From Macrostomum lignano (lineage: Eukaryota), in assembly GCA_002269645.1 (NCBI GenBank), contig NIVC01000221.1, positions 1 through 64,000 on the forward strand: DNA of 64,000 bases, given 5' to 3'. Positions 179-50,790 of this stretch are shown here, piece after piece. Both the position numbers and the translations under genes were made by a program. The notes below the pieces were generated by a model. That model was not told the origin of the DNA. It searched no databases and was given only the letters and a program-made list of their open reading frames with translations. Every line of letters starts with the position of its first letter. Position 1 is the stretch's first letter.

Positions 179-1076
179 TCAACCAAAAGCAGAATCAACA
201 AGCTTAGCGACGCCGACCACAGGACTCGCAAGGATTGCTCCAGCCCCCTGTCCGATGCTGCTCATAATGTCCACAAACCTGGCTGGGGCTGTTGGCACTG
301 CGCATTTAGTAATTGCTGCTGCTCTTCTAGAAGTTTGACCTTGGCTTTCATCTTATCCATCTTCTTTGCTTCATCCCGCTGTTTCTGGGCCTCCGCCTCC
401 TCTCGGCGTTTCCGCTCCTCAGTCTGTTTTTCCAGGTCCTTCTTCAAGTACTTGCTCGGGTTCAGCTTCGATACCTCATCGATAAGGCCCATCAGCGTTG
501 CCACCTGCCGTTCCTGCATACCCGGGTCGCACCTCTTGCCGTGTCCATCAGCACGTAGCGGTCTCCGAAGTCCTTCATCATCTTGTCGAGCTCAGGAATT
601 TCTTCTCGCGCGACTTTCAGCTCTTTATTTTTAAATTCGTTGATGTCGTTGTCAAAATGGTCACCTCTGCTGAACACCACGATGACGCGCTTGCACGACT
701 CCGGACCGAACACTTCCACAGTCTGGCGGATAGCCAGGCACTCTTCGTTTGTGAAGCGGACGTCCGCTCTGGCGACCACGAGAAAGGCGTCAACGCCGCA
801 CGGACACTTGTTCAGCGTGCGCAGCAGCTCACCCTGCGGCATGTTAACGTCCTTGGAGTCCATGGTTCCGGGAGTGTCCACCACCAGCAGGCTGCGACCG
901 CGGACCGTTCGCATCTGCGCCTCGCACTGCTTCGTCTGCGACCTCATGCCATTTCCGACTTTGAAGCTTTCCTCCTCCATTAGGGTGTTGGCTAGAGAGC
1001 TCTTTCCGCTGCCTGTCTTGCTCATCAGCACCACCGTTGTCATCTGGCTGGAGTCTTGCGGCTGATCGGCTGACAT
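179..1076 (-). pseudogene. GIMAP: AIG1/GIMAP-family GTPase, copy 1, with two apparent 1-nt deletions (pseudogene or assembly error)
   Basis: ORF 492-1076 has the P-loop SKTGSGKS, DTPG, the AIG1 conserved box RFTNEE and G4-like SRGD. Versus copies 2/3 one T is missing at ~542 (gccgtgtcc vs gccgttgtcc). The frame continues in ORF 262-519. A further 1-nt loss at ~275-277 hides the tail GFVDIMSSIGQGAGAILASPVVGVAKLVDSAFG* ending at 179. Confidence 0.8.
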
Positions 1077-1788
1077 TGCTGTAGTGCAGTCTTCTCTGTA
1101 GGTTAGAGATGGCTTAGTAGTTTTCTGTTCTTGGAGCTTTGAACACCCGCTGTATATATAGAGTTTTTTGAACAGGGTAGTGCCTAGAGCTTTAGGTAAA
1201 GCTCATCATTAAGTTCTATTTGCTATTGTCTAGAGCAGGTACTACCTGTACTCCCTGTGGTCCTCTTCGTACCGCTTTTCGATTTTCGCATTTCGCATTT
1301 CGCATTGAAGCTGCGCATTGATGAGCCTGCATGTACTCTTCAAATTTGGTCCAGAATATGCGCCTAAACTATTTATAGCACACCCAAAGTGGCCCAGCAG
1401 GTTCTCTAATAGTTTCTCTGTTTTGCTTTATCTGTCTAGTCTGCGGCAGTCATTCCAGCTGAAAGTACACAAAATAATTTTCCATGATGGAATAACCAAG
1501 AAATCTTTGAAAACGACAATAATCAAATTGAAATATCTTTTGTGACAGCTGAGATTGGAATAAAGACAAACACGCCTAAAAGTGAATATTTTTAAGTTGT
1601 TCCTGATTCTGGATAGGCTACCTATGTTGAAGTACTGGGGTTATTGTACTTGATAGTGAAGAATTACCATGCCCCCATATCCCACACTCCTTGTTTGGTC
1701 GGCTTAACACAAAAAGAAACTGGAGACGTAGGTAGCATCTAGGAATTAAGGTGAGTCTTGTCTGGATTAAAGCTTAACTCAGGACTAG

Positions 1789-2214
1789 TATAGTATTTGT
1801 CATGCTATCTCAGCCCAGAGACATCCAAACTCAGCCAGTCCCATTCCGCAATGCGTTTTTTTGGCTCGAGCTAGTCGACTTTTACCATAGACATGCTTCC
1901 CAAGGCCATGCCATCTCAGCCCGGGACATGCAATCTCAGCCAATATAGATTTCAATTGCAAACACTTCTCGCTTCGTCTTCGTCGCTTGTTGCTCTCATT
2001 CTGTTTCATTTGCTTCGATCACAGACTAAGCCACGGACAGCTTGACATAGCATCTGAAAAGTGGCTGAGATTGCATGTCCCAGGCTGAGATAGCATGGCC
2101 CCAAGAAGCATGTCTATGGTAAAACTTGACTGGCTTACGTAAAAAATCGCACTGTCGAGATGGGCTGGCTGAGTTTGGATGTCTCTAGGCTGAGATAGCA
2201 TGACAAATACTATA
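1789..2214. mobile_element. MITE (foldback, long TIRs, TA at both ends)
   Basis: Left end TATAGTATTTGTCATGCTATCTCAGCCCAGAGACATCCAAACTCAGCCAG is the reverse complement of 2165-2214. A second inner inverted pair lies at ~1880-1945 / ~2060-2125. The element is absent from the paralogous site at ~6295-6310. Confidence 0.85.
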
Positions 2215-2685
2215 GTTTTTCAACACTGAGCGCAAACTTTCTACTTCACCGATATTAATTGGTTTGCATAGCAGAATGAGGCATAAATTCTTGAGCCTGC
2301 TGTAATGGATAGCAAGCTGATCAAGCAAAGAATCACTATTGATAAGCTTCTGGATAGGCAGTGAGGCACAATAGTACAGCATAATTTGAGTCAATTTCAG
2401 CAACAACAACAAAATACTTCTCCCGCCAGCCACGCAGTGGCCAGAAAGGGTAGAAGTCAGAGAGCGTGTCTCTGGGCCATAGACCTCAAAAAGTCCATTT
2501 CGCAAAATTTGTTGTGTCACTAATTTACAAGGTTTCAAAACTGAATAACCATGGAGTATTCAACAAAACTACCGAAGCAAAGAACTCAGAAATTAACTCA
2601 ATCTCATAGGACAGCGGTTGTCTATAGATAGGAGAGTGTAAGGAGTTCTTAATAAAACTGTCAGCCAAAAACTTTATCAAATAGC

Positions 2686-3675
2686 TTAGCAGCGTCGACC
2701 ACAGGACTTGCAAAGATTGCTCCAGCCCCCTGTCCAAGACTGCTCACAATGCCCACAAAGCCTAAACTGAGCTGTGGCTGTTAGCGCTGCGCATATATTG
2801 ATTGCTGCTGCCGCTGATGCTGCTGATGCTGCTGCTGATGCTGCTGCTGATGCTGCTGATGCTGCTGCTGCTGCTGCTGATGCTGCTGCTGCTGCCGCTG
2901 ATGCTGCTGCTGCTGTCGCTGATGCTGCTGCTGCTTTAAAAGCTTGATCTCGGCTTCCATCTTTTCCATCTTCTACGTCATTCTGCTTCTGCGCCTCAGT
3001 CTCCTCTCGGCGTTTCCGCTCCTCAGTCTGCTTATCCAGGTACTTGTACTTGCTCGGGTTCAGCTTCGATACCTCATCGATAAGGCCCATCAGCGTTGCC
3101 ACCTGCCGTTCCTGCATACCCGGGTCGCACCTCTTGCCGTTGTCCATCAGCACGTAGCGGTCTCCGAAGTCCTTCATCATCTTGTCGAGCTCAGGAATTT
3201 CTTCTCGCGCGACTTTCAGCTCTTTATTTTTAAATTCGTTGATGTCGTTGTCAAAATGGTCACCTCTGCTGAACACCACGATGACGCGCTTGCACGACTC
3301 CGGACCGAACACTTCCACAGTCTGGCGGATAGCCAGGCACTCTTCGTTTGTGAAGCGGACGTCCGCTCTGGCGACCACGAGAAAGGCGTCAACGCCGCAC
3401 GGACACTTGTTCAGCGTGCGCAGCAGCTCACCCTGCGGCATGTTAACGTCCTTGGAGTCCATGGTTCCGGGAGTGTCCACCACCAGCAGGCTGCGACCGC
3501 GGACCGTTCGCATCTGCGCCTCGCACTGCTTCGTCTGCGACCTCATGCCATTTCCGACTTTGAAGCTTTCCTCCTCCATTAGGGTGTTGGCTAGAGAGCT
3601 CTTTCCGCTGCCTGTCTTGCTCATCAGCACCACCGTTGTCATCTGGCTGGAGTCTTGCGGCTGATCGGCTGACAT
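2686..3675 (-). CDS. GIMAP: AIG1/GIMAP-family GTPase, copy 2 (329 aa; poly-Ala and CxxC..CxxC tail)
   Basis: Uninterrupted ORF with LMSKTGSGKSSLAN, VVDTPG, RFTNEE, VFSRGD and a coiled-coil-like EERKRREE segment. TATA-like motif ~80 nt upstream. Confidence 0.9.
   Translation of the reverse strand: MSADQPQDSSQMTTVVLMSKTGSGKSSLANTLMEEESFKVGNGMRSQTKQCEAQMRTVRGRSLLVVDTPGTMDSKDVNMPQGELLRTLNKCPCGVDAFLVVARADVRFTNEECLAIRQTVEVFGPESCKRVIVVFSRGDHFDNDINEFKNKELKVAREEIPELDKMMKDFGDRYVLMDNGKRCDPGMQERQVATLMGLIDEVSKLNPSKYKYLDKQTEERKRREETEAQKQNDVEDGKDGSRDQAFKAAAASATAAAASAAAAAASAAAAAASAASAAASAAASAASAAAAINICAALTATAQFRLCGHCEQSWTGGWSNLCKSCGRRC
2800..2935. repeat. CTG/CAG-type trinucleotide tract (GCT/GAT mix) inside GIMAP copy 2
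   Basis: Run of gctgctgat units. The homologous tract in copy 3 (~6893-6976) is shorter, and copy 1 has only ~3 units. Confidence 0.9.
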
Positions 3676-3751
3676 TGCTGTAGTGCAGTCTTCTCTGTAG
3701 GTTAGAGATGGCTTAGTAGTTTTCTGTTCTTGGAGCTTTGAACACCCGCTG

Positions 3752-3759
3752 TATATATA
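3752..3759 (-). promoter_or_regulatory. Putative TATA box of GIMAP copy 2 (same motif at 1153-1160 and 7798-7805)
   Basis: TATATATA followed by CAGCGGGTG on the minus strand, ~77 nt upstream of the ATG in all three copies. Confidence 0.5.
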
Positions 3760-4330
3760 GAGTTTTTTGAACAGAGTAGTTCCTCGAGTTTTAGGTAAAG
3801 CTCATCAATAAACTCTATTTGCCATTGTCAAGAGCAGGTAGTACCTGCACAACATTCTTTAATGTGGTCCTCGTACCGCTTTTCGATTTTCACTTTTCGT
3901 ATTTCGCATTGAAGCTGTGCATTGATGAGCATGCATGTACTCTTCAAATTTGGTCCAGAATGTACGCCTAAACTATTTATAGCACACCCAAGTGCTCCAG
4001 TAGTTTCTCTGTTTGCTTTAGCTGTCTAGTCTGCTGCAGTCATTCCAGCTGAATGTACACAAAATAATTTTCCATGATGAAATAACCAGGAAAATCCTTG
4101 AAACCGACAATAATCAAATTGTAATATTTTCGTGACAGCTGAGATTGAAAGAAAGACAAAACACGCCTACTGGCCTTGTAAAAAGTGCATCTTTTTAAAG
4201 TTGTTCCTGATTGTAGATAGGCTACCTATGTTGAAGTACTGGGGTTATGCACTTGACGTACCATGATAGTGAAGAATTACCATGCCCCTTTATCCCACTC
4301 CTTGTTTGCTCGGCTTAACACAAAACGAAA

Positions 4331-4666
4331 CTGGAGCCGCAGATTCAGTCCTAGAGACGCAGGTTCAGTCCTGGAGACGCAGGTTCAGTCCTGGAGACGC
4401 AGGTTCAGTCCTGGAGACGCAGGTTCAGTCCTGGAGACGCAGGTTCAGTCCTGGAGACGCAGGTTCAGTCCTGGAGACGCAGGTTCAGTCCTGGAGACGC
4501 AGGTTCAGTCCTGGAGACGCAGGTTCAGTCCTGGAGACGCAGGTTCAGTCCTGGAGACGCAGGTTCAGTCCTGGAGACGCAGGTTCAGTCCTGGAGACGC
4601 AGGTTCAGTCCTGGAGACGCAGGTTCAGTCCTGGAGACGCAGGTTCAGTCCTGGAGACGCAGATTC
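4331..4666. repeat. 20-bp minisatellite (AGGTTCAGTCCTGGAGACGC)x15 plus degenerate flanking units
   Basis: 15 perfect units at 4361-4660 with no spacers. Only ~1.5 units at the paralogous site ~8380-8408. Confidence 0.97.
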
Positions 4667-5918
4667 GTGACGGTGAGCGCTTCCTGCAGCCGCCATGACT
4701 TGCTGTTGGAAAATAATTGGAAGCGAAATGTTCTTTATACTATATTGTGTCAAATATTGTATTGTTATTTGCTATTGAATATTAAATGAGCCCGACAAGG
4801 AGGCCGCTCCTGGGGAGGAGCAGCGGGCGCACCCAAGACCGGCGGCCAACCCTGAGGGGCATAGCAACCGAGGGGTGGACGCGCGGACCGGCCCGCACGA
4901 AAAGACAGGAAAAGAACTCAGAACTGGCTTCCCCCAAACACTCTAACTCAAACAGAGTAAAACTGATGAGTCTAACCGCCTAACCCTCGCCCCCGTAGCA
5001 ACCCGCGTGTCAACCCCCGCGTTTTAAATCTTATTGCTTGAGCTGTGTTATGTAAACCTTGTCGTCGTTAGCTCACGATATCTCACCCCATCGACGCCAG
5101 GGGATGAAATTGTAGGAAGTCTGCTCAGTTATGTAACTTGAGTATTCATCTAAGAATCGTCAAGAGGCTTCGTCAAGCCTCAGTGGTATCTCTCTGCCTC
5201 TTTCTACAGAAGTGCTGAAATTTTGTCATCGGAAGTTTTCGTCCGCCTGAGGTTATAACGGAATACGAGAGTTTACAATGGCATTGCTGCAGATTCATAA
5301 TTTTTTCCTTCCTTGCCTATCCAATCCAGCCCTACAAACTCGCGCACTTGTCTTTAAACAAAGAAACTATCCTTCATCAAAAAAGCCTTACAATAGTTGC
5401 TGAATAACCCCATCGATTCCTCAGTGTCAGAATCAGGAAAAGTTTCCAGTGTGTCAGAAGCAGAACAGCAGTCACCCGAGACGGCTCGCAGAATTTGAAA
5501 GCTCACGATGGAGTCAAAAACAGTTTTTGCGCCTCTGCTCTCAATTCCTTCCATCGCCTACTTGTGTTCTGCTTGCCTGCCTTGGGAACTACTTTCAGAA
5601 AAGCAGCTTCAGCCCAGAGCTGCGGGGGCCATTGTCTCTGACTACAAGCTCACGTGAGGCGGCTGTGGTGAAATTCTGATTAATCTACATTTGTGTCTTT
5701 TCTGTTATTTGTATTTTATTTTCTAGTTATGCAGTATTAGTTCAAAATCCTACCAGAAGATTAGCAGCCTTTGACTGCGCAAATCGCAGATATACAAAAA
5801 ATAATTTACGTAGTAAAAAATTTACAGAGATTCTGTAGTCTCGACAATAATTCATTAGTTTGTATGAACACAGGCTGTTTCTTTTATTTTCTATTGAACA
5901 ACAATGACCTTGTCATTG

Positions 5919-5976
5919 ATGCGGCCCGAACGGAATCGAACTCGGGACTTTGACACAAGAGTCCAACGCAATTCTA
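5919..5976 (-). other. tRNA-like/SINE head fragment
   Basis: Minus strand reads ...TTGGACTCTTGTGTCAAAGTCCCGAGTTCGATTCCGTTCGGGCCGCA, with a B-box-like GTTCGATTCC. No complete cloverleaf can be supported. Confidence 0.4.
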
Positions 5977-6304
5977 TTTAACTACTTGCCCCCAATTTAG
6001 TGAAATCAGATTGAAGAACATAGGAACTTCCTAGCAGAACTATCTTCAATGATTTTTTCTGCTAGGCCCTTGATTAAGTTACCACAGGCACATAATATCG
6101 CGTAGAACACGGATAACTTTATATTTATTCTTGGCTATTAAAAGTTTATGCAATCGGAAGGAGCCATGCTCGAAGTGTGGCTTGTTGGTACAAATACCTG
6201 TATTAAATATTTTATATTTATTCTCACTGTTTTTACACCAATAGCATCTAGGACTTTAATTAAGGTGAGTCTTGTCTGGATTAAAGCTTAACTCAGGACT
6301 ACTA

Positions 6305-9300
6305 ATTTTTTAACACTGAGCGCAAACTTTCTACTTCACCGATATTAATTGGTTTGCATAGCAGAATGAGGCATAAATTCTTGAGCCTGCTGTAATGGAT
6401 AGCAAGCTGATCAAGCAAAGAATCACTATTGATAAGCTTCTGGATAGGCAGTGAGGCACAATAGTACAGCATAATTTGAGTCAATTTCAGCAACAACAAC
6501 AAAATACTTCTCCCGCCAGCCACACAGTGGCCAGAAAGGGTAGAAGTCAGAGAGCGTGTCTCTGGGCCATAGACCTCAAAAAGTCCATTTCGCAAAATTT
6601 GTTGTGTCACTAATTTACAAGGTTTCATAAACTGAATAACCATGGAGTATTCAACAAAACTACCAAAGCAAAGAACTCAGAAATTAACTCAATCTCATAG
6701 GACAGCGGTTTTCTATAGATAGGAGAGTGTAAGGAGTTCTTAAGAAAACTGTCAGCCAAAAACTTTATCAAATAGCTTAGCAGCGTCGACCACAGGACTT
6801 GCAATGATTGCTCAAGCCTCCTGTCCGAGACTGCTCACAATGCCCACAAAGCCTAAACTGAGCTGTGGCTGTTGGCGCTGCGCATATATTGATTGCTGCT
6901 GCCGCTGATGCTGCTGATGCTGCTGCTGATGCTGCTGCTGATGCTGCTGATGCTGCTGCTGCTGCTGCTGATGCTGTTTCTTTAAAAGCTTGATCTCGGC
7001 TTCCATCTTTTCCATCTTCTACGTCATTCTGCTTCTGGGCCTCAGCCTCCTCTCGGCGTTTCCGCTCCTCAGTCTGCTTATCCAGGTACTTGTACTTGCT
7101 CGGGTTCAGCTTCGATACCTCATCGATAAGGCCCATCAGCGATGCCACCTGCCGTTCCTGCACTTCCGTGTCGCACCTCTTGCCGTTGTCCATCAGCACA
7201 TAGCGGTCTCCGAAGTCCTTCATCATCTTGTCGAATCCAGGAATTTCTTCTCGCGCGACCTTCAGCTCTTTATTTTTAAATTCGTTGATGTCGTTGTCAA
7301 AATGGTCACCTCTGCTGAACACCACGATGACGCGCTTGCACGACTCCGGGCCGAACACGTCCACAGTCTGGCGGATGGCCTGGCACTCTTCGTTGGTGAA
7401 GCGCACGTCCGCTCTGGCGACCACGAGAAAGGCGTCAACGCCGCACGGACACTTGTTCAGGGTGCGCAGCAGCTCACCCTGCGGCATGTTAACGTCCTTG
7501 GAGTCCATGGTTCCGGGAGTGTCCACCACCAGCAGGCTGCGACCGCGGACCGTTCGCATCTGCGCCTCGCACTGCTTCGTCTGCCACCTCATGCCGTTTC
7601 CGACTATGAAGCTTTTCTCGTTCATTAGGGTGTTGGCTAGAGAGCTCTTTCCGCTGCCCGTCTTGCTCATCAGCACCACCGTTGTCATCTGGCTGGAGTC
7701 TTGTGGCTGTTCGGCTGACATTGCTGTAGTGCAGTCTTCTCTGTAGGTTAGAGATGGCTTAGTAGTTTTCTGTTCTTGAAACTTTGAACACCCGCTGTAT
7801 ATATAGAGTTTTGTGAACAGAGTAGTGCCTAGAGCTTTAGGTAAAGCTCATCATTAAGTTATATTTGCTATTGTCTAGAGCAGGTAGTACCTGTACTGCC
7901 TCCCTGTGGTCCTCTTCGTACCGCTTTTCGATTTTCGCATTTCGCATTTCGCACTGAAGTTGTGCATTGATGAGCCTGCATGTACTCTTCAAATTTGGTC
8001 CAGAATGTACGCCTGAACTATTTATAGCACATCCAAGTGGCCCAGCAGGTTCTCTAATAGCTTCTCTGTTTGCTTTAGCTGTTTGATCTGCTGCAGCCAT
8101 TTCAGCTGAAAGTACGCAAAATTATTTTCCATAATGGAATAACCAGGAAATCTTTGAAACCGACAATAATCAAACTGTAATACTTTCCTGACAGCTGAGA
8201 TTGAAAGAAAGGCAAAACACGGCTACTTGCCTCGTAAAAATTGCATCTTTTGTTTCTGATTGTAGATAGGCTACCTATGTTGAAGTACTGGGGTTATGCA
8301 CTTGACGTACCATGATAGTAAAGAATTACCATGCCCCTTTATCCCACTCCTTGTTTGCTCGGCTTAACACAAAACAAAACTGAAGACGCAGATTTAGTCC
8401 TGGAGACGAATATTAAATTCAATAACAAATTACAATACAACCCCCGAGGGGCGTAGCAACCGAAGGGTGGACGCGCGGACCGGCCCGCACGAAAAGACAG
8501 CAAAAGAACTCAGAACTGACTTCCCCCAAACACTCTAACTCAAACAGAGTAAAACTGATGAGTCTAACCGCCTAACCCTCGCCCCCGTAGCAACCCGCGT
8601 GTCAACCCCGCGTTTTAAATCTTATTGCTTGAGCTGTGTTACCTGTGTAAACCTTGTCGTCGTTAGCTCACGATATCTCACCCCATCGACGCCAGGGGAT
8701 GAAATTGTAGGAAGTCTGCTCAGTTATGTAACTTGAGTATCCATCTAAGAAGCGCCAAGAGGCTTCGTCAAGCCTCAGTGGTATCTCTGGCTCTGTATAC
8801 AGAAGTGCTGAAATTTTGTCATCTAAGCAGGTTTTCTTCCGCCTGAGGTTATAACGGAATACGAGAGTTTACAATGGCATTGCTGCAGATTCATAATTTT
8901 TTCCTTCCTTGCCTATCCAATCCAAACCCTACAAACTCGCGTACTTGTCTTTAAACAAAGAAACTCTCCTTCATCAAAAAAGCCTTCAAAAGACTTCGTA
9001 GTTGCTGAATAACCCCATCGATTCCTCAGTGTCAGAATCAGGAAAAGTTTCCAGTGTGTCACAAACAGAACAGCAGTCACCCGAGACTGCTCGCAGAATT
9101 TGAAAGCTCACGATGAAGTCAAAAACAGTTTTTGCGCCTCTGCTCTCAATTCCTTCCATCGCCTACTTGTTTTCTGCTTGCCTGCCTTGGGAACTACTTT
9201 CAGAAAAGCAGCTTCAGCCCAGAGCTGCGGGGGCCATTGTCTCTGACTACAAGCTCACGTGAGGCGGCTGTGGTGAAATTCTGATTAATCTACATTTGTG

Positions 9301-10570: not shown

Positions 10571-10975
10571 CCAACCAGTCCTTGGACTGAATAGCCGTAC
10601 GCTGCTTTCAGATGTCGTTTGTTTATCTGCCCATTAAGTCAGTAGTAATCAGTTATTTAATTATTATTTATTGTACTCGAAATCTGGTCGGCATCTGAAC
10701 TGCAGCAAATTTAGACCTATTTCTAACTTATCACTTTATCTGCGATCATAGGTAATCAGCATTCAGTAGTGCGTAGCCAATCGCAATAGGCTTTCTAGCA
10801 TTTTCCAGAATGTCGTAGACAATAATGGAAACCACCTGATTGGATAGTAATCTACATCTAGTTACTGCCTGCACTCGCAACAGGATAAAAGACTGATTCG
10901 ACTAAGAACTAAGATAGCACTAGCACTATCATTAAGACTCCAAAGACTTAAACTGTCGCCTTGTAGTTCTTCTCA

Positions 10976-11694
10976 ATGAGCATTTCCCAGCTGCAGTCGG
11001 CGTTGCTGTGCGCCCTCTTGACCTGTGCGGCTGGCAGGGTGGCTCATTTCTCTTATGTCGGTTGCTACCAAGACGCCGCTAACCCAAACAGAGACTTGAC
11101 AGGCCTGAAAACACTGAAAGGACTTAACAATCTGGGATCGTACATCACCGACGGTGCATTAATGTACAGCCCTGACATGACGCTCGGGGTCTGCAGCAAC
11201 TTCTGCTCTCTGTTCGGCTTCCCCTACTTCGGCGTGCAGGTCGGCAAGCAGTGCTTCTGCGGCAGCTCCTACGGACTCCACGGACAGCTCAGCGATAGCA
11301 AATGTAACAGCCAGTGCAAGGGAAACCCAGAGCAGATTTGCGGTGGCTTCACCATCAACTCCGTGTTCGCTCTGCACTACCCAAGTAAGTTAACATTGCT
11401 CCGTTCTCTTGGAGTTGCGAATTTATCTAATTGAGTAGGTTTTTGTTGGAACCACAACTTCCAGAAAGCAATGCCTACACTGTGCTGAAGGACATCACGG
11501 TGACCTCTGCCGTGGACTCGTCCTGGCCGGCCGCTGCCCAGTCTGACGCGGACTGCCTGCTCCAGTGCAGCGCCAGAGCCAACTGCAGCGCCGCCGTCTT
11601 CTCGAAGCAGCTGCTCGCCTGCCGCCTGCTGCCGTTCGCCTTCCCGCCAGCCAGCCTGACCGGACCGGAGTGGGCTGTGTTCATCAAAACTTAG
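10976..11694 (+). CDS. Secreted WSC-domain + PAN/apple-like protein, copy A (exons 10976-11384, 11465-11694; 212 aa)
   Basis: Signal peptide, then YVGCYQD...C..FC...YFGVQVGKQCFCG...C...C.G..EQICGG (WSC). Donor A|gtaagt and acceptor ccag| are both phase 1 (80-nt intron). Exon 2 CLLQCSARANCSAAVF...CRL is PAN/apple-like. Confidence 0.9.
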
Positions 11695-13340
11695 GTGATT
11701 TCAGAGAAAAGGACAAGCGGCTTCGAAGCCAAACAGCATGACAACGATTCGACTCTGAACAAAACTGAAAAAGATTTATCTCAGAAAAAAATCGGTTTTT
11801 GATCTAATAAGATTTTTGATGTGCTGGAATTCGCTTTGTTACTGTGAGATAGTGTGAGTTAAATAAAAAATGTTTTAAATCGATTGTCAATCAGCTTTTT
11901 GGCAATTAACAAATGGCATTAAACCATGCATCTTCCTGGGATTAAGATTTATTTCAATAGTTTTCCTGAGTGTGCTATTCGAGTTTTCACTTCCCCCGTA
12001 ATCCCATTAATTCTACGAAGTATATTGATTATTCTAAAAGAAAAAAACAAAATCATCTTAGTTCGAAAACCTTCCTAATATACTACTTTTACTCACTACT
12101 TGTATTAGTCCTCTAATTATCCACTTTCCATACGTATTCTTTAAACCTCATTCAATTTGCTGCCCAAAACCAGAGTCCCAACAACTTTCAACCATCAGTG
12201 CAGGGCCACCTGCACCTTCCTAAAAATTAATTTACAATTGAAGTTTTCTCATTTGTGCCACTAGGTTCCTATTATAAGCAGCATGATCCTAAGTTCGAAT
12301 CCAAATACCAGTGCAAAAAGGAATGCACCCAGTACACGCAATGGATCTAGACAGGATGGATCTAGAAATTAGGGATTTTGACAAGAATGCGTATTTATGC
12401 ACATTAGCGCACAATTTAGGTAACGACGCAAACCTGACTACTTTAATCAGCTCATGCGCTGCTTTTGAGACACTCGAAGGGCAGAAATCCACCTTCCAGC
12501 AGGAAGCTGCTAGCGACGCTGCATGGTTCCTCCGTGATCGTCGCAAAAGCTCGATCTCTTCTTTTTCGGGCGGTCGCGCTTTCCGCAGTATCTCGACAAT
12601 AAAAGATGGACGAAAAAAATTTGACGAATTGATTTTTTTTAGTTTTCATTTTGGTTCGGTCCTTCCAAGGATTTCTATTGTTTTGGGAAATACCTGATAA
12701 GAAAAGAAAAAAAGCTGCTCAAAAAATAGGAAAACCTTCGTTTTGAGGCTTGCTTCCTATGTTTAAAAACAGTATTGTATATAGAAGAAATTTTTTCAAT
12801 AACGGAAACTCACAGGCTAGGGAGCCAGTAACTGGGGGAGGCGGCCACCTTCCGAACAAAGGGCGAGACAAAGCTGTTGTAGTCAGTGGATTGGGTCATT
12901 GCGAGCATGGTTGCTCTGTGTCCACATGGTTGCCTTTAAAGACACAACAGGGATGTGGAGGGATCGACGGAGTATCAGGTGGCGTTGCAATCTGTGCTGC
13001 AGCCTGCTTGAAGCTGTCAAACCGCCACTGAGTGTCGGCTCTCGACAGCTTCCATCATCTTCTCCTGTGCTGCGAGTATCTCCCGTAGCTCTGCTTAGAG
13101 CCTGCAAAGTTTAGGGTCAACGTCCCTACAGTTTTATGCGTGTACTGAAAAGTTTAAACTTTTGTAGCTCGCCAAAAATATTGCCTGTGCTGCGGGAAAA
13201 TTTTATAACTTTCGTTCGCTCGCTTTCACGATTTCGTGAAAGGACCCATTTTGGGGGGAGTTTGTGCACGGAACTTGCCCGAGGGTTGTTGTGCAATTGA
13301 CAACCAATGAGGGACAGAGATTGTACATGCCTGACGATTA

Positions 13341-13436
13341 ACACACCCTCAATTACCCCAGCTATTGCTGGCACCCATTTTACCGCTGGGTGAACCGAAG
13401 CAATGCAGAGTAAATAAGTGTCTTGCTCAAGAACAC
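13341..13436 (-). mobile_element. SINE core fragment, inverted homolog of 10470-10565
   Basis: Its reverse complement matches the SINE core at 10470-10565. Confidence 0.65.
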
Positions 13437-13906
13437 GAACTATATACTCAGCAACATCGAAAAGTCGTCATCACAGAAGATCCAGTCTGTGGTCGCCACT
13501 TTTGAGAGCGCAGGTAAAGTCTCTCAATCCTTTGCGAGTGACGCAACTTAGCTACGCCACGCGGCAGACTTGAGTCGAGGAATGAAGTGGGGGGGGGCGG
13601 TGTGCGAGGGTTGGACGGATTAAAGCTTGTTTTGATTCATTGTTGTTTACGGGAATGAAGTTGTAGTACGCCACTGTCGGAGTTTTAGATACGCTCGCAA
13701 CTGTTTTAATCATCCTATGATCCGTCGCTAGTATCTGTGAATAATCGAGCATGGCTAATTCAAAGCTTACAGAACCGTCTGATTAGATAAAATCTGAATG
13801 CCTGTACTCAGAAAAGGATAAAAGGATGACGCTCGTGAGAGAATTGCTTCCAAGCTCCGGATGTTGAGATTCGATAGCTTTAACCCGTAACTATTCTTGA
13901 ATTAGA

Positions 13907-14614
13907 ATGAGAATCTCACTGTTAGAGTCGGCGTTGCTGTGCGGCCTCCTGACCTGTGCAGCCGGCAGGGTGGCTCATTTCTCCTACGTTGGTTGTTATC
14001 GAGACGGTGATAACTCGAACAGAGATATGACAGGTCTGAAAGGGTTAAAAAATCTGGGGCCGTACAGTATTGGTGTTGGCGACCTAGTGCACAGCCTCAA
14101 CAACATGTCGCACGAGTTCTGCAGCAACGTCTGCTCTCTGGGCCGCTTTCCATACTTCGGCGTGCAGGTCGGCAAGCAGTGCTTCTGCGGCAGCTCCTAC
14201 GGACTCCACGGACAGCTCAGTGATAGCATGTGCAACAGGCAGTGCACGGGAAACCCAGAGCAGATTTGTGGCGGCTTCTCAATCAACTCCGTGTTTGCTA
14301 TGACCTTCCCGAGTGAGTTAGCTCGACGCTGCCTCTTAGAATTTCAACTGAGAGAAAATCTTAATAAAATTACACAACTTTCAGGCAACAATGCATACAC
14401 TGTGCTGAAGGACATCACGGTGACCTCTGCCGTGGACTCATCCTGGCCGGCCGCTGCCCAGTCCGACGCGGACTGCCTGCTCCAGTGCAGCGCCAGAGCC
14501 AACTGCAGCGGCGCCGTCTTCTCCAAGCAGCTGCTCGCCTGCCGCCTGCTGCCGTTCGCCTTCCCGCCAGCCAGCCTGACCGGACCCGGATGGGCTGTGT
14601 TCATCAAAACCTAG
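13907..14614 (+). CDS. Secreted WSC + PAN/apple-like protein, copy B (exons 13907-14312, 14385-14614)
   Basis: Same architecture as copy A. Donor CCG A|gtgagt and acceptor ttcag|gc bound a 72-nt intron that is in frame and stop-free. Confidence 0.9.
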   Translation: MRISLLESALLCGLLTCAAGRVAHFSYVGCYRDGDNSNRDMTGLKGLKNLGPYSIGVGDLVHSLNNMSHEFCSNVCSLGRFPYFGVQVGKQCFCGSSYGLHGQLSDSMCNRQCTGNPEQICGGFSINSVFAMTFPSELARRCLLEFQLRENLNKITQLSGNNAYTVLKDITVTSAVDSSWPAAAQSDADCLLQCSARANCSGAVFSKQLLACRLLPFAFPPASLTGPGWAVFIKT

Positions 14615-15935: not shown

Positions 15936-16522
15936 GATACTTGTGCGCTTGGGTTCTGCGCTGTCGCTGTTGCCGACTTTGTCGCTTGGACTGATTTCGA
16001 CGAGATCGCAAGCGGTGGTGCTTTGTCGCTCGAAACCGTTTTACCAACTCCTTTAGTTGGCGATGCTGGCGTACTTCCAGGCATTTTCGTAGCCTATGCT
16101 TGCGACGCCACTGTTGTGCTTTTGGCTTTTAGCCTTTAGCAATTGTCAGTCTAGCGGTCTGTTGACCTCTGACGCGTCTATTATTTATTCCATAACTCAA
16201 TAGCATGGTTCAATTCATCAACGCAGTCGCGTAACAAAAATGTCTATGGCAAAGCCATCAACCCACAACAACATCTAAAAACCTTCAACTGTCACTTGTT
16301 ATCTGATTTAAGACACGAATGTGTTTACTTATTAAAAACTGATGCTTGCTTGAATGGGATTTTGAGCGTGTTGTGACACTTTTACCGGCAAAACTGAACT
16401 TAAAATATTTGTATTTAATCTTTGACTGTTTATGGCAAGTCTAACTGAACGTCTTAACTCAGCACCTGGACCGCCTGTAACAAGCCAGTTCTGGAAATCA
16501 TTAATAAAATTTGTAGTTTTAA

Positions 16523-16640
16523 GACTACGTATCGTGCAGATTGTTGTCGATTTTTAGACAGATTTGACGCAAAAAAACGCAAATTATACTACTATTTGAA
16601 AATGAAGTAAGTAGTATATGAAAACGCTATCCTAAGCGTG
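16523..16640 (+). repeat. Left TIR (looser TGTACA/ATTAATCCC-rich subterminal similarity to ~17000)
   Basis: GACTACGTATCGTGCAGATTGTTGTCGATTTTTAG...AGTAAGTAGTATATGAAAACGCTATCCTAAGCGTGA matches the right end. Confidence 0.92.
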
Positions 16641-17376
16641 AAATATGTATACATAGCATATTTCTATATGTACTTGCATATGTACATTAATCCATGTACT
16701 GCATTAATCCCTATCTATCTCAAATGGATATGTACATTAATCCCATGTACATTAATCCCTATCTATCCCAAATTGTACATGTTCTATCCCCAATTCTATA
16801 TGTACGCAGTACATACTTCTACATTAATCTACATGTACAGTGTCTTCCCCAGACGGCCGGCGCGCTCTGTATGAATCACCAAGATTACATGTACAACTCG
16901 AAACCCTACTACATGTACAGTTGTGCGCAGAGGTGAGAATTGGTGTACAATCTCATCTAAATGAGTCAACTAATTGTACAGCTCACATCGTATATAAACT
17001 ATTTACAAAGAAGATATATTTACAATAAATCAGTAGCATATTACAGGAAAAATTTTATGTACATTACCAGCAAATAGAATAAACGGAAAATTTTACATTG
17101 TTTTTCAATATTTTTCTCTTCATAAATGATTTTAAGCAGGTCTGACACGCAAAATATGAACAATAGATTTTTACATTGGCAATTTCACCGCATACAATAC
17201 AAAAATACTTTATGCACATGAATTATGTACAACAAATAGATTCACGCTGATAAATTTGGCAATAGTACGAGCTACAATGCAAAAATGCTTTATGTACATT
17301 GATATGCAAATTATGTACAACAAATAGATTTTACTAATTTTATAATGCAAAATGTACATTGAATTGTCAGTCAGCA

Positions 17377-20300
17377 TTATTTATAGCCATAAGGCCTGCT
17401 GCAGGCCCCGTACACGCGTTTCGTCAGCACGCGCTGAAACGTCTTGTCCATACTGATCGTGTGTATGGTACAAGACGCCTTGTCGCGCCTGAACTGAAAC
17501 TGCGGCAGCTGCAGAGAGCCGCCGTGTAGCAGGGTGTTGCGCAAGTCATCGCTACGCTCCCGTATCTCCGGAGTCAGGCGGATGCCCTTGCATTTCAGGA
17601 CTTGGCTGCGGACACCGGCCGCATCCTCGACAATGTAAGTGTAGAGCTTGGGCCCCCCACTTACAAAGTCGGTCATCCGGCTGCCTGCGGGCACCTCATC
17701 GGTCCACATTCCGAGGCTCGTGCCATGGGGCGGCTCCCATTGGCCCTCGGAATGCCGGTAAACGACCCTGTGTGGGGGAGAGAAAAACGAGATAATTAGT
17801 TCCACATGCTAACTATTCAATTCTAAAAGAATTTTTCCAATGCAATACTTACGAGTCAGTGTCGCAGTAAATGGCCCGTTCGCCGAGCCCCTCCAATGCC
17901 TCGTACAGGCGCAGCCGGGCCTGCGTGGTCGTAAAGACTCCGATTGGCACATTGGAGTACCTGAATGGCCGCTGATTAAAGTAACGGTGCCGGTACTCTA
18001 GCAGCATAAACTCGCTGCCAATCGGTTCGCAGGCCTTGACTTTGAGGTTGGGGTCGGTCAGCCGGGCGAGCCAGTCCTCGTAGCTGGACACAATCTCGGT
18101 CGATGTCAGGTTGTCACGCTGACAAAATTTGCCCCAGAGCCTGTGTAGTGAAAAGAAAAGCTACTGTTAGTAGAAGAAAATCATTTAAAAAACAAAATTT
18201 ATGAATACTTACGAATTCAAAAAGATTTTCGCTACAAAGCGAAGTCCTGGGTTGGGTTCGACCTTGTCCAGCGTGACGCCCTCCTTGGCGAAGAAATCGG
18301 CAATATAGGCCGCCTTATCTTCATCCGACATGCCGGGGGAGCCGCTCGATTCGGCCTTCAGCTTCAGGAAGGCATTCACGTAATCACCGAACAGACCGGT
18401 CCGCTTCTCTGTCCAGTAGGCTAGCGCGTGAACAGCCTGCAGACGGTAGCCCAACTGGAAGGCCTTTTGCAGCTCCGGCGTTGCCCAGGTGCCAGTCAGC
18501 GCCCGTTCCTCGTCTGAGTGGTCGCAGCACTCGCCACCGCACTGCTGCTCCATACAGGTGCGGCAAAGCCCAAAAAAGAGCTTCTTTTGCACCCTGTACG
18601 GCAGCAGCGGAATATGCAAATCCGACGGCGGTAGCACAGTCACTTTGGCAATGCCAATTAAAGTAGCTGGCCAGCGCGTCAGAGTTGAGCGTCTGCGGCG
18701 TCTGATGCTGCACCGGGTGGCCAATCGGGTATGGGTCTTTCGACTGCACCGTCGGGTACAGAGAGACCTGCAAGTTGAAATAAAGCATTATTTTTCATAA
18801 ACTGTATTTTTACAAAATATTCTACTATATCAGTAGTATCACTACTCACCACATCCCGATATTTGAGCGTCTCAGTCTCGCTGGCCACAGCATGCGGGAT
18901 AAAACACTCTACGCGGCCGCCATAGAGCGCATCCTCCATCTTGAGTGGAGCGCGCAGATGGGCAGTTGCGGCGATAAAATCGGTCTGCGGTGCCAATACA
19001 GCGTCGTATTCGTGCTCCCAAATGACTCGAACACTGTAATTATCGAGTGCAACTCGCGAGTGAACCACTCGGTTTCGTGGCGAATGTGGCTCAGAGGCTG
19101 CCGTTTGAGCGGGTGGACGACATCCTGATCGGGCATGCACTGCTCCCAGCCATGGTAGAAACAACCAAGAAACTGCAAAACAGTGTTGCTAGCCTCATCA
19201 AAGCCGTCCACCTTGCGGCCGAGAATGACCGCCTCGCCGCCAGTCGAGTCGCAGGTGCGCAGCCGCCCGCCAAATTCGGTGGCATTCAAATAGGCCAGCC
19301 ACTTGCGCGCCTTGAATGACTGCTGGTCGGCCTGCCGGGCAATCACGCCGACCGAGTTGGGCTCCATGAATTTAGTAGTAAATACGGCCATTGCCAAACT
19401 GGCAATCGTATTGGCCTGAACAAACGGTTCCAGGCCGTCGCAAATGTCGCCAATTATTGCCCTGTACTTGATGCAGCCCTCGCGAAGCAGAACTGTGTCA
19501 CTCAAACAATAATCGAGATACTCCCGATTAAAGTTGAACAACTCGCCCTGTCGCGAGGCCAGCCAAGCACAGATGGAGTCGTAGTCATTGTTTGCTTTGC
19601 CGCCATAATATTCAATAGCCGGGTAGGGGCCCACGTAGTTCCAATTAGCCGGCTTGTTAAACTCGTGGGGAAAGGTCCCCTTGGCCAGCTTTGTGTCAGC
19701 GAGCCCCAGCGCTTTGGGGAATTGCGCAAGCGGGATTGGTATAAATTTTAACGAATCTTTAAATACCAATTTATCCACCGTCATGCTCATTAGCCGGCTG
19801 CCCTGGAACAGTACTTGGGGCCGCTTCTTGGCCAGGCCGTTGAGCAGAGCGCCAAGCAGTAGAAACGCATCATAGCCTGATGCATTGTGCGCGACAACAA
19901 TGGCGCCGCCTCGGAATGTGGTGCTCAGCCAGGCGAAAAACGCATTCAGCGAGGCCGGGCCCACAGCCACAAAATCGGCCATTTGGCAGGCGCAGTCTGA
20001 GTGGCTGACGCAATTGGAGAATTCCTCCCCCAGATCGCGGCCAGTCAGACAATTGGCGGCGCTATGCAGGCCATTGCAGAGGCGGCAAGTCTCGCGCGGA
20101 AACGCCCGGCCGGAGCAGGTCTCGCAGCACGTGACGGCAGTCACCAGATGCACGTGATGCTGCTTCTCCTCGTCCGTGTACGTTTCCGTATCGTAGAACA
20201 CGTACGGCATAGTCGAAGCTTTCACTTTGGGAGCCTTGACGAAACACAAATGTGAGCCGGCCTCGTCGTACTGTTTACACAGTGGGCACTTGACATGCCC

Positions 20301-21422
20301 GCACTTGTGCTCCGGCTCCTTCTGGCCCGCTTTCATCTCCTCCAAATATCCGCATTTGGAGCAGACGCGTATGGAGCTGCAGCGAGACCTGCCGGCTCGG
20401 TTTTTTGGCGGTGATTGTTAAAGCACTGCTGATTGTAGCACTTGAGGCCACAATCAGCGCAGCGCTTATAGTCACACCGCAGGCTCTTGCAATTGGAGCC
20501 GGGCACTTTACACTGAGGGCAGGTGTTGGCGCACTTGTGTTCTCCAGACACGCAGTCGTACGGCTGCTGGCAGCTTTCACAATAGCGGCGAGCACCGAAA
20601 AATGGCGGTACCTTGCACACCGCGTTAAAGTGTTCGCCAATTAGGTGCAGATTCAGCACCGTGTTGCCGGGCAGGGCATACACACACGTGTTGCCTTCCT
20701 CAGCACTGTACACACGAACGCCGAAATCCCGGCCGGGTGACTGAGCGTTCATGGCGGCGAGCAGTTGAGGGAGCACGTCAACCCAGAAAGGCCCGGCCTG
20801 TGCAATGGTTGATAAAGACTAAAACATTTGTATATTAATAAAAATGCAAATTAAAATGTGCAAGAACATTTTTACTCACCGAATACGGATTGGCAGCAAT
20901 CTGAAGCTCCCCAGTCAGCTTCGTCTGCAGTGAGGAGTCGGCTTTGATAGTCCGCCAAGCCCGCTTAGTGATGGCCTTGGCCTGCAGATCGGCGTATGCC
21001 TTGGCGACAATCAGCGCCCGGATAAGGCACCGCTTGTCGCGGTTGGCAATGACAACGTAATTATAGCCCATTGAATGGCGTGCCTGGATGTGGCGCTCCG
21101 CCGCATCTAGGCTGCCGCAGCCGCCCCGCGGGACCCAGGCCTTGAGTAAAAACAATTTAAAGTTGTTGCCCAAGACACTGGAGTCCGACTGCAGAACCTT
21201 GTTGATATGTTTAAATATCAACTCTGCAGTGAAGCGGGCGGCGCGGACCGGCGGGACATTGATGGCGAGCATCATATTGTCCGCTGTCAGCTTAGATGCG
21301 ACGAAGTCATCTGCATTCAGGTCGCTGCAAAGCACAGAAATTATATTCTCAAATGTTGAGCGAATATCGCTCAAATTTGTGAATACTATCTCGTATTCGA
21401 CCCCTTTTGCCTTAAAGGGCAT
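17377..21422 (-). CDS. pPolB: Protein-primed family B DNA polymerase, Polinton type, multi-exon (21422-20880, 20797-18850, 18767-18213, 18140-17853, 17767-17377); ~1240 aa after correcting three 1-nt indels
   Basis: Exo motifs FYDTET, HNASGYD, FKDSLKF and YCLSD; polymerase motifs DVV|SLYP, KIFLNS|LWGKF, YCDTDS|VVY and GPKLY; C-terminal KRVY..SRPYGY. All four introns are GT-AG and phase-matched (82, 82, 72, 85 nt). Frame breaks at ~20403, ~19044 and ~18658. Confidence 0.92.
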
Positions 21423-22163
21423 ATGAACTTAGGAGTCAGAATGGAGCCTGAAGCATTGGGTCCCGATTTCTCTACGCCAATCCCTTCATTTGGAGCCAAA
21501 TGGCTCCCGTTATGCCGAAAACCCGACCACTTTAGCGTTTGGGGATCTCTGTGGGGAGAAAGGGGATAAATGTGGATTTCATGTGAACTTAAGGCTCTTA
21601 AGGCTCTTAAGGCTTGCAGCGGTGATTACATCATACATCACCCCCGAGCCCAAAAAATCGGGGGTTGATTTTATCACTGCCAGAAAGCCTGCATGCCCGC
21701 TGAGTCACGTTCGCGCCGCAGGATTGCTGTTTTTTGCTTCTTCTCTCTCTAGTTCAAGGATGAGTCAAATACTGCCCCTGGAATTTTATGACTATCCTCT
21801 ACAGGTATTATCCAACTATACTGCTGTTGCGGATATTCTCCGAAACTCTGTTATTTCAATAGGCCTGAATTGAGAAATCCAAATAAATCTAAAGCAAAAG
21901 CAGTTTCTTCCCTTTTACTTCAATGTGATATCTATGGCAGGAGGACGGCCTGACTTCAGAAATTTTAAGCCAAAACGAATGTTAAAGATGGAAAGCTGTG
22001 GTTTCAAAGAAAGCCCATATTTCAACAAGCGTGAAGTTTGCAAATCACACAAATGCTAAAGCTGAAAAGCAGTTATACAGCCCTATTTTTCTGAATTTAG
22101 ATTTCGCAAATGCTAAAGATTAAAAGCATAGTTTTACACACAGAGACTTGCAACAAGACTCAC

Positions 22164-22323
22164 CTAGCTGTCGCCCCCTCTTTGCGGCCGGAGGCTGATG
22201 CTGATGCTGCTGCTGCTGTGGTTGCTGCTGCTGCTGCTGTGGTTGCTGCTGCTGCCTGGATGGGCCGGCATGCCCCCACAAGGCTGAAATAGCCGCTTCC
22301 GCGGCAGAGCGCTTCGATGCCAT
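22164..22323 (-). other. Putative Gln-rich first coding exon upstream of pPolB (MASKRSAAEAA...QQQQ...PAAKRGRQL|gtgagt)
   Basis: First ATG downstream of a TATATAAA box (22542-22549), ending at a strong donor CTAG|gtgagt (phase 1). The downstream acceptor is not certain. Confidence 0.4.
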
Positions 22324-22541
22324 TTCGATGGGGAAGGTAGATGGTTGTTGATGCTGCTGGTGATGTTGTTGAGGCAGTTGGCGCTGCTGTTGTTGCTTTT
22401 GTTGCTGCTGCTGCTGTGCTGATGCTGCTGCTGTGTTGCCGCTGTTGCAGGCTGATGCTGTTGAAGCAGTTGATGCTGCTGTTGTGGCTTCTGCTGCTGC
22501 TGGCTGCTTTTGCTGATGCGGCTGCAGCAGCTCTCACCCGC

Positions 22542-22549
22542 TTTATATA
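22542..22549 (-). promoter_or_regulatory. Putative TATA box for the pPolB-side transcript
   Basis: TATATAAAGCGGGTG on the minus strand, followed by a CAG-rich ATG-free leader. Confidence 0.45.
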
Positions 22550-23761
22550 CCCCGCGAGAGGGAGGATGGGGTAGGGGCACGAGAAGTGTGCGTGATTTTC
22601 TTCCCGGGTCTATATTTTCTAGATTAGTGTACGATTGTACACTCGGTTCCGCATTTGATATAGAAAGTTGGGGGTCAAAAATACCCCGCCAATTCCTTTT
22701 CCATGCGGTATTTTATTGGATCTGAGCGGAGCCAGCCAACCGGCACTCTCGCAGGAGTGAAATTGCGACTTCGCCAGAGTACAGTCTCTCAAAGAAGAAG
22801 ACCGCTTCCTCTTGCAGCATGTCTTTTCGACTCGAATCGGATAGAAAACGGTGTTTATCCAGAAAATAATTGGCAGAAGCTGACCAATAATAGCTAAATA
22901 CAGATGAAAATATGAAAGACAATTTCTGTAGTTATTCAAGGCCTGTCGGTCTCTGTTTACGAAAATGGTTGTCAAAAATCGCTGTATCAATTTAATAACC
23001 CGGGGGGAAACGGAGTTTGTGTGCAAAGCATCTGATTGACAGAGGCTCGGGGAAGAGTAATAGTCGATGAAAAGCTCTTGCCATCTTCTAAAATATCCAC
23101 AAAGAGTAATAAAGGTGACGGAGATCCCCTGTCGCAAGCCAAAACAGAGAGACGGAGTTTTCTACTTCTGTTTACGTAATGTTTGGGGATGCTTCCCTGT
23201 CACCTGGGGTTATAGGGACAGAGAGTCAGTTATGGCATTTACGCGGTAGTAAAGAATTGCCTTGGTGAGGCTGGGGTAGGTGTTGTTCTCTCCATATTTG
23301 CGACATTATTAGTCTCCTGGGTTGAATTTGGAATATGGCTAGAATGTATTGTGGGGAATCGTTGAATTGAAGGGTGATTCAAAATGTAGTGTGTGCAACA
23401 ACACAGATTCAGTGCATCTAAAAGAGGCTGTTGGGAGCTTCAGAACTGAGAATAACGTTTAAAATAGCATCAATGGCATGATTTAGTAATCGATACTGAA
23501 ATCATTCAGTATAATAGCAGACTGTGTTTTTAGCGCCAACTAGCAATCTACGCCCCCCGTTGGGGAGCCAAAGATATGCTATACACGTTTTTTTAATAAG
23601 CAACATGTATCCTTGAAATCTTAAAAAATCTCCTGTCAAACCTTGTAAGCCTTGACATGTCAGTAATTCCCCCCCCCAGCTTTAACATATCAACTTCCCC
23701 CCTTGACATCTCAGCAATGCCCCCAATAAGCCTTGGAAATCTAAAAATATCTGTCAACCTT

Positions 23762-23805
23762 CTAACCCTAACCCTAACCCTAACCCTAACCCTAACCTAA
23801 CCCTA
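23762..23805 (-). repeat. Interstitial (TTAGGG)n tract in H1
   Basis: About 7 TAACCC units on the plus strand. Confidence 0.9.
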
Positions 23806-24574
23806 AAGCATTGAAATTTCAGTAATTCTCTCTAAGAGTCATTATAGCACTACTACAGCATTCGTAGCGATAAGCTTCTTTTATTTTTTACATAACGCTT
23901 TTTTATCAGCGATCCCTCGCCTGAGGAGGCATCAAATAATGTAATAAAAAGTTTTCAATAAACTACATGTAGCTTCTGACTTTAGCCTTGAAATCTCATT
24001 TATACCCCCGTGAGCCTTGACATCTCAGCTATTCCCCCCCGTCCGTAAGCCTTGACATGTCAGCGATGGCCCCCATAAACCTTGAAATCGAAATAATCCA
24101 CTGTTAACCTTGAAACCCGATAAAATATAACCCTCAACCCACACCTGACCTAAACCTAACTTTAACCCAACCTAAAGCCTTGAAATCTCAGCAATTCTTC
24201 TCCCCTAAGCCTTGACATTTTAGTGATTCCTTCTTTAAGAATCAAGCACTATAACGATTTCCACCAAGCTTTGACATCGTAGCAATTCCCAAATTAATCT
24301 TTTAACTTCGACATGACTTTTCTTTTATGTATACGTAGTGCTACTTTTATTTTTTACATGACTCTGCTACATGACCCTGTGGCGAGCCAACAAAGAATGC
24401 AATAAAAAATTGAGTAAAGTACATGAACTTTGAAGTAGCTTCTGACTTTTGCTTTGAGATCCCAGAAACAACCCCCCCCCCCTCGTAATCTCAGTTATTC
24501 TCTGAGAGCCTTTACGTCTCAGTTTTTCTTCCCAGCACAGCATTATAGCTGCATTTCATTTTTACATGACATCC

Positions 24575-47733: not shown

Positions 47734-47839
47734 TTTTTAGTATATTGGATTTCATTTTTAGTATATGGGAGGATTTTACTGTGTCTATAGAATACTTCCC
47801 CAGCTTCGTCTTGGGCAATATACATGCCTATTTGAATGA

Positions 47840-50059: not shown

Positions 50060-50177
50060 TCACGCTTAGGATAGCGTTTTCATATACTACTTACTTCATT
50101 TTCAAATAGTAGTATAATTTGCGTCTTTTGCGTCAAATCTGCCTAAAAATCGACAACAATCTGCACGATACGTAGTT
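50060..50177 (-). repeat. Right TIR of the 33.7-kb element
   Basis: Reverse complement of 16523-16640 with few mismatches, followed by TTAA. Confidence 0.92.
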
Positions 50178-50790
50178 TTAAGTCACTTTCTGACGACATC
50201 TTTGTAACGCAGGCATATCTACAAAAATATAATTTAGATACAGTTTAGACTACTTTTCTCGGTAGAAAAATGGAAAAAGTGGTGCTGAAATTTATTCGAG
50301 AACAGTTTAATCAGAAATAGGGACAATAAATTCTTTTGTATTCAGTAGACTATAAAAATCTGATGCCAGTAGTCTGATGCGATTCTTGTTTACTGCCTTT
50401 AATGGCGTTCAGGTTCTAGCTTTTTCTGTTCATATGGCTTTTGTTCTGAAACCACACGCATGCCATTAATTAATTGTGCTGTTAACATAGGAGTATGCTT
50501 GATTGCTGCCATGGATCCTCTAATTCAGCACTGTTTACCAAGCCTCTCGGGCACCCAGTAATTGATTTCTTGATTGGGGAATTGCATCACTATGGCAACG
50601 AATCCCAGAGCCTTTCCCATTCCAATGGATCACGGATCCAGATGGGAACAAAGCATTGTCAATAATAGAACCAAATATCAGCAGAAAGCTTCTATTGGCC
50701 ATCCATGTCCAATTAACGACATTGCTTTGGAAGATAAAAGCGTGAGCGTGAGAACCCAAAAAGCGCTTTAACACTTTTCCTTCAGGAAAA

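Follow-up and report, generated by a model that had tools for sequence, protein, structure and literature searches.

Whether Polintons (Mavericks) are viruses or transposons is debated, and their termini begin with 5'-AG. Among described members of this lineage, pGKL cytoplasmic linear plasmids and transpovirons are capsid-less replicons, the latter dependent on a helper virus (PMC11161782), and integrated eupolintoviral elements of dinoflagellates contain active introner copies, mostly young and mostly non-coding (PMC12166617). Cryptophyte Polinton-like elements carry group I introns (PMC12220804), and the available sections of two further papers mention self-splicing introns only (PMC10748475, PMC11296320). 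The literature covered does not describe spliceosomal introns fixed in the polymerase of a Polinton, nor the element presented below or its lifestyle; older key literature, supplements and Repbase lay outside this scope, so prior annotation is possible. Here we analyse 64,000 nucleotides of Macrostomum lignano (GenBank assembly GCA_002269645.1, contig NIVC01000221.1, positions 1 to 64,000; the window), the minus strand of which carries at 17377-21422 a protein-primed family B polymerase gene (PF03175) split by AT-rich GT-AG segments. We consider it probable that this gene is the damaged remnant of a polymerase with five introns, encoded by a ~9-kb Polinton-derived element with neither integrase nor capsid gene, which as a host-spliced satellite would replicate its own linear DNA and depend on a helper for integration. 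Such an element likely copies itself and borrows integrase and capsid functions from other elements.

Introns 1 to 4 lie on the minus strand at 20879-20798 (82 nt), 18849-18768 (82 nt), 18212-18141 (72 nt) and 17852-17768 (85 nt), in phases 0, 0, 2 and 2 that agree with the flanking reading frames. All four have GTRAGT donors, YAG acceptors and a GC content of 0.25-0.34 against ~0.55 in the exons, and a branch-like CTAAC or CTAAT precedes the intron 3 and intron 4 acceptors by 30 and 32 nt. An earlier note, made from the letters of this DNA alone, had described these four phase-matched introns with the same lengths and had likened them to those of the neighbouring host WSC genes (72, 80 and 101 nt); both statements stand. 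Its placement of the cuts within polymerase motifs B (LNS/LWGKF, intron 3) and C (YCDTDS/VVY, intron 4) is likewise correct, and that in motif A (intron 2) moves one codon upstream to YRDV/VSLYP.

The exons follow the layout of the polymerase. A 5'-truncated exon 2 (20880-21416), judged by the fold predicted for the family exon, encodes a terminal-protein-like domain and the first half of a vOTU domain that is interrupted by intron 1; exon 3 (18850-20797; PF03175, E 4e-13) encodes the second half, a Cys-rich region, exonuclease motifs I-III and a VSR-like insert, with residues conserved in relatives. Exon 4 (18213-18767; PF03175, E 1.4e-5) and exon 5 (17853-18140) precede exon 6 (17377-17767), which holds the end of the palm, the thumb and the stop codon. 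Upstream, the total of four introns given earlier is one short: a basic, Q-rich leader of 53 codons (exon 1, 22323-22164), which is likely a nuclear-import signal and has an equivalent short basic exon in a second family described below, ends in a phase-1 donor and is followed by a fifth intron (intron 0), preserved here as a remnant at 21614-22163 and 0.6-1.4 kb long in other copies. Between this remnant and exon 2, a fragment of a 160-bp repeat (21417-21613, limits approximate) replaces the 5' end of exon 2 and its acceptor, so the ATG at 21422 is incidental and not the family start. The repeat is matched ~60 times in a second contig that has the insertion, and not at all in the other loci compared. 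Three exon frame shifts, near 20400 and 19050 in exon 3 and near 18660 in exon 4, leave the window copy without an open frame that splicing alone could restore; the latter two are common to two other contigs with the same insertion.

Several lines of evidence confirm that introns 1-4 are spliceosomal GT-AG introns. Across 30 genomic copies, none of which lacks the introns, the junction flanks are constant and the lengths of three introns vary (81-88, 66-78 and 74-112 nt), mostly by values that are not multiples of three, with GT..AG retained in 25 of 27, 26 of 30 and 26 of 28 copies in which the junction was found. An alignment of 101 outside relatives contains no inserted columns at any of the four junctions, and profile matches are interrupted precisely across read-through intron 2. 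The variable lengths and the uninterrupted relatives rule out the coding insertions that the earlier note had named as grounds for abandoning the introns, and read-through of intron 3 meets an immediate stop. Group I or II self-splicing introns are disfavoured by the lengths of 65-112 nt and by an Rfam scan of 16400-24500, which returned no ribozyme or intron family and one chance-level small RNA match. Likeness among the element's own introns is near that of shuffled sequences (largest excess ~2.6 standard deviations), with an old introner origin still conceivable.

Removal from RNA is seen for intron 4, which is exactly skipped (78 nt there, GT..AG) in three RNA-like runs from three studies (X1, X5 and X6); these are contigs of guessed RNA status aligned to a family-A copy, and the transcripts are not assignable to the window copy. 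A DNA-like run with even and deep coverage (X10) has no such joint. In X6, contigs break off at the intron 2 donor and the intron 3 donor, leaving 173 and 154 letters over, and one RNA-like contig spans exactly exon 5 of the family copy. The RNA check suggested for the junctions thus succeeded for intron 4 and yielded no joint for introns 0-3 among the 15 of 38 alignment rows listed. Public gene models, the basis of which is not stated, splice the same sites and are labelled DNA polymerase; together with the Pfam match to exon 3 they leave only partly right the expectation that screens based on open reading frames (ORFs) would miss the gene.

The gene is part of a unit of 33,653 bp (16524-50176) that has inverted repeats with an ACTAC start at its ends and a 6-bp duplication around it. 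The polymerase-side repeat (16524-16645, plus strand) is 96-97% complementary to the second, which ends in GTAGT (50056-50176, minus strand), and the flanking hexamer at 16518-16523 recurs at 50177-50182. About 23 kb of this unit is secondary satellite; copies of the same family (A) and of a second (B, 65% protein identity) are mostly 8.5-10 kb long, a typical copy measuring 8.5-9.8 kb, with ACTAC...GTAGT terminal repeats. Both families are dispersed: 150 residues of exon 4 have 117 matches in the genome, exact terminal-repeat words number 143 and 212 (the first 100 of each listed), and 46 distinct insertions carry 6-bp duplications (20 of family A, 26 of family B). Facing the polymerase head to head, the B copies and some A copies also encode a PC4-fold protein (template modelling score 0.83 on the target, root-mean-square deviation 1.7) and a second ORF of low complexity; neither is present in the window copy.

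Purifying selection has acted on the polymerase in both families. Median ratios of non-synonymous to synonymous divergence are 0.12 (six A-A pairs), 0.09 (ten B-B pairs) and 0.11 (six A-B pairs), so that the check proposed earlier gave ~0.1 within and between families. Of 12 A stretches 4 have open exons 2-6, and of 23 B stretches 5 do; among all 35, 18 are broken and 8 were not fully parsed. A and B share five introns at identical sites and phases, in answer to the paralog comparison proposed earlier, even though the introns themselves are unalignable (identity 0.48) and synonymous sites are saturated (difference 0.73). GC content at third codon positions (GC3) is 0.68, equal to that of the neighbouring WSC gene, against 0.36-0.49 in canonical Polinton polymerases. 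Shared sites in saturated families, this composition and the intron 4 joints together bear out the idea of host splicing and long nuclear residence.

The encoded protein runs in the order terminal protein, vOTU, exonuclease, VSR and polymerase. The vOTU Cys and His are kept in 98 and 99 of 101 relatives, and the exonuclease, VSR and motif A, B and C residues in 96-101 of 101. A structural model of exon 2 (predicted local distance difference test, pLDDT, 87.5) matches Y-family little-finger domains at Z 5-6, as well as the N-termini of adintovirus and mavirus polymerases; the little-finger match is also reported for Polinton terminal proteins (PMC11161782). The polymerase has 8126 relatives at E<=0.001. 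No relative outside the species exceeds 42% identity among the best 150 matches, and the nearest has uninterrupted motifs A-C. In a FastTree phylogeny of 44 of 45 rows (one omitted for short overlap), A and B are joined (100) and then group with P0063 (100) on an unresolved backbone, and the genome's decayed canonical vOTU-type polymerase is placed elsewhere. The latter belongs to a decayed canonical Polinton (L128:5211-7400, on G000:C234) with a vOTU/VSR-type polymerase and no introns through motifs A and C. An alignment-based search returned eight loci; querying viral contigs with P0041 gave no match, and the sole metagenome match to P0063 was a giant-virus nuclease domain.

When 16 A and B elements were searched with 145 ORFs taken from the genome's own canonical Polinton regions, no gene for integrase, capsid, ATPase or protease came to light: 116 of these ORFs gave no match and the other 29 matched polymerase and PC4 only, the integrase queries being drawn from three canonical groups. 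ORF inventories of the A and B elements leave no space for an integrase. Among the matches listed, none to capsid and only one to integrase falls inside 68 terminal-repeat pairs, the latter in a canonical element that is nested there and has a duplication of its own. Negatives from family models are weak, as a Pox_A32 search gave no match although ATPases were later found, and the capsid model missed a group-3 capsid ORF.

The missing capsid, ATPase, adenain and integrase genes are present in separate canonical Polintons of this genome, for which the assembly (G000) yields 73 capsid and 143 integrase matches. At least three such groups, with endonuclease VII-type polymerases, lengths of about 12-13, 15.5-17 and 18 kb and hundreds of terminal words, can be distinguished, and we found no literature account of them. 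Their polymerases are continuous frames of 1281-1312 residues. One group pairs a PC4-integrase-capsid-protease-ATPase block with an endonuclease VII-type polymerase, and in one, seen at G000:C67:348668-348760 and some 40 places like it, each of the two termini is itself a palindrome of ~95 bp, in contrast to ordinary terminal inverted repeats. The PC4-like gene is common to A, B and one canonical group, at 29-33% identity.

Three genes nested in shells of the element were considered as the helper's: a P-like gene has its own repeats and an 8-bp duplication, a long terminal repeat (LTR) gene has its own direct repeats, and the boundaries of a mariner gene could not be placed. An apparent group-3 Polinton with ACTAC ends proved to be an AGTAG element of 12,120 bp inserted into a B-type palindrome (G000:C106:353964-375023), the shell of which measures 8.9 kb alone.

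Based on these features, the host would transcribe and splice the polymerase gene in the nucleus, and the vOTU protease would free the N-terminal terminal protein, which would prime synthesis at the ACTAC ends. The polymerase could then copy the linear element by strand displacement, assisted, where present, by the PC4-fold single-strand-binding protein; template switches would produce whole-length palindromes, and a retroviral-type integrase supplied in trans would insert the copies. The five introns were presumably gained once, before A and B split, and may have been kept because each round of expression passes the host spliceosome.

Several observations weigh against this proposal. No helper was found among the canonical groups examined, and all canonical ends examined start with AGTAG rather than ACTAC. 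Of the A/B insertions, 33 of 46 have a pyrimidine-purine step at duplication positions 3-4, whereas two canonical groups have it in 6 of 19 and 3 of 20 (p 0.005 and 3e-5); this difference indicates that these two groups are probably not the helper, in a comparison that covered neither the hairpin-ended group nor two subfamilies nor the integrase group at 58-59% identity. Beyond the terminal-repeat matches listed there may be an autonomous element with ACTAC ends. Replication, cleavage and extrachromosomal forms are predictions, and the absence of B-B pairs with a synonymous difference under 0.01 means that current activity is not evident. The Z-scores of the exon-2 fold are below 8, and the splicing evidence comes from contigs of guessed RNA status, lacks listed joints for introns 0-3 and includes a run (X1) that covers the introns too.

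The position of the introns and the length of the element led us to a bolder reading. Under uniform placement of five introns, the probability that motifs A, B and C each receive one is ~7e-6, in a test framed after the pattern had been seen; these three sites rank in the top 0.3-6% for conservation, and those of introns 0 and 1 do not. Introns 2-4 also lie, on our assumption, within a few codons of the intein sites of archaeal PolB. Archaeal PolB inteins likewise sit at three places within the catalytic domain of the polymerase, and their retention in conserved motifs has been ascribed to the cost of imprecise loss (PMC4760082); the insertions here differ in being 65-112 nt GT-AG introns without an ORF. 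By analogy, our introns may have been retained since imprecise loss would be lethal at motif sites; alternatively, they may shield conserved sites from homing-type nucleases or descend from mobile inserts at these sites.

With regard to length, 31 of 37 family B and 13 of 31 family A terminal-repeat pairs measure 8.0-10.5 kb, as do 13 of 17 family B pairs without a polymerase match; one canonical group has seven derivatives under 12 kb among 27 pairs, spread from 0.6 to 11 kb. Polymerase-less derivatives are often more than 99% self-inverted, and certain shells attain this length solely through nested insertions. Nine loci (L103, L109, L110, L204, L205, L208, L209, L214 and L215) are non-coding, near-perfect whole-length palindromes of 8.7-9.6 kb, all of them flanked by a 6-bp duplication. 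A minimum size for packaging would explain the constant length, as would length-preserving template switching at meeting forks, and the equal length of the palindromes hints at packaging-size selection. In helper-dependent adenovirus, which shares protein-primed linear DNA with terminal repeats only, undersized genomes rearrange to direct or inverted dimers that reach ~75% of helper length (PMC4189039); the likeness is an analogy only. It is conceivable, though we regard it as unlikely, that the element is an animal satellite replicon with its own protein-primed, host-spliced polymerase, which is packaged in the capsid of a helper Polinton, borrows an integrase and carries motif introns that shield it from the homing-type nucleases (VSR, endonuclease VII) of competing Polinton polymerases. 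Its 9-kb length would then be held near a lower packaging limit, at 75% of the 12.1-kb canonical element, a part of this reading that we find equally doubtful.

The short copies could instead be deletion derivatives of a once-complete intron-bearing Polinton, now extinct or unassembled in its full form, which spread them while its polymerase was under selection only as long as it lived. This would fit the many broken copies (8 of 12 A and at least 10 of 23 B), the PC4-like gene held in common with a canonical group and the lack of near-identical open pairs. However, the same reduced layout of second ORF, PC4-like gene and divergent polymerase occurs in two synonymously saturated families, and the short copies show selection when compared with one another, which argues that the reduced form has long been the replicating unit. 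No longer parent occurs among the pairs listed, and we judge this origin improbable.

We find about equally improbable a multipartite Polinton-like virus, in which a second ACTAC-ended segment of similar length would carry integrase and capsid and both segments would be packaged. The tight length class, which includes B pairs without polymerase, and the distinct ends and target bias, which suggest a dedicated integrase, are in keeping with it, and a candidate integrase group at 58-59% identity occurs at about 25 places. Yet in about 35 polymerase-less ACTAC-ended stretches no native Polinton gene for integrase, capsid or ATPase was present, these being non-coding palindromes or containing nested long interspersed element, LTR, mariner, P-like or CACTA-like elements, and the capsid and integrase matches listed touch the 68 pairs only through the nested element mentioned above. 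A domesticated host gene, suggested by host-like introns, GC3 and transcripts, is highly improbable: over a hundred matches are scattered through the genome, with terminal repeats and target duplications that are unique to each; the window locus has lost an acceptor and contains three frame shifts; and among the best 150 matches no relative from another species exceeds 42% identity; the single fixed locus, lost termini and intact frame of a domesticated gene are all lacking. Hence, of the two origins offered by the earlier note, a vertically adapted element is retained and domestication is set aside.

In the window unit, degenerate subterminal repeats follow the polymerase-side terminal repeat to about 17160, and the secondary expansion (23762-47147), composed of TTAGGG-type runs with 22/23-nt and 18-nt tandem arrays, breaks up the family-A left arm from about 23540 to 47770. 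What remains of that non-coding arm (47774-50055) lacks a PC4-like gene. The tandem units of the expansion recur in six other loci examined, and in another contig with the same insertion the 160-bp repeat is expanded instead. The element is inserted among host genes, namely tandem AIG1/GIMAP GTPases (492-7847) and a WSC/PAN cluster (10967-14614 and 50752-56278). At a different locus, both arms of an A-type shell contain a dUTPase gene (L108:795-1316, E 7.5e-31), the DNA of which is also found in PC4-bearing A copies.

Taken together, a single genome contains both extremes of this lineage, canonical capsid-bearing families and a reduced replication-only family that has host introns and host codon composition and has been kept under selection for as long as synonymous sites take to saturate. 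This makes the transition from virus to transposon, trans-acting Polinton integrases and the gain of motif introns testable in a laboratory animal. Such elements are invisible to screens that require polymerase, integrase and capsid within 20 kb (PMC10748475), and it is for the element as a whole, which a five-gene Polinton screen would miss for want of integrase and capsid genes, that the earlier concern about screens holds. Compared with Polintons (PMC11161782, PMC10748475), A and B share the protein-primed family B polymerase with its domain order and catalytic residues, a terminal-protein domain (fold match, Z 5-6) followed by an active-site vOTU, and a short repeated terminal word; their terminal inverted repeats and 6-bp duplications fall within the Polinton ranges of 100-1500 bp and 5-8 bp, and a PC4-like gene occurs in one canonical group here. 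They differ in lacking integrase, major and minor capsid proteins, ATPase and adenain, in measuring 8.5-10 kb rather than 13-25 kb, in ending with ACTAC rather than AGTAG, and in a polymerase with five spliceosomal introns where the canonical ones are continuous. Like the dinoflagellate elements (PMC12166617), they are integrated Polinton-like elements with spliceosome-type inserts, but the inserts of A and B are five unrelated introns, fixed at matching sites in two families that have diverged deeply and show purifying selection. With pGKL plasmids and transpovirons (PMC11161782) they share a capsid-less replicon of the Polinton lineage with a terminal protein and an active vOTU, whereas A and B are integrated with target duplications, host-spliced and free of a helicase fusion or an RNA polymerase of their own, and have kept the exonuclease.

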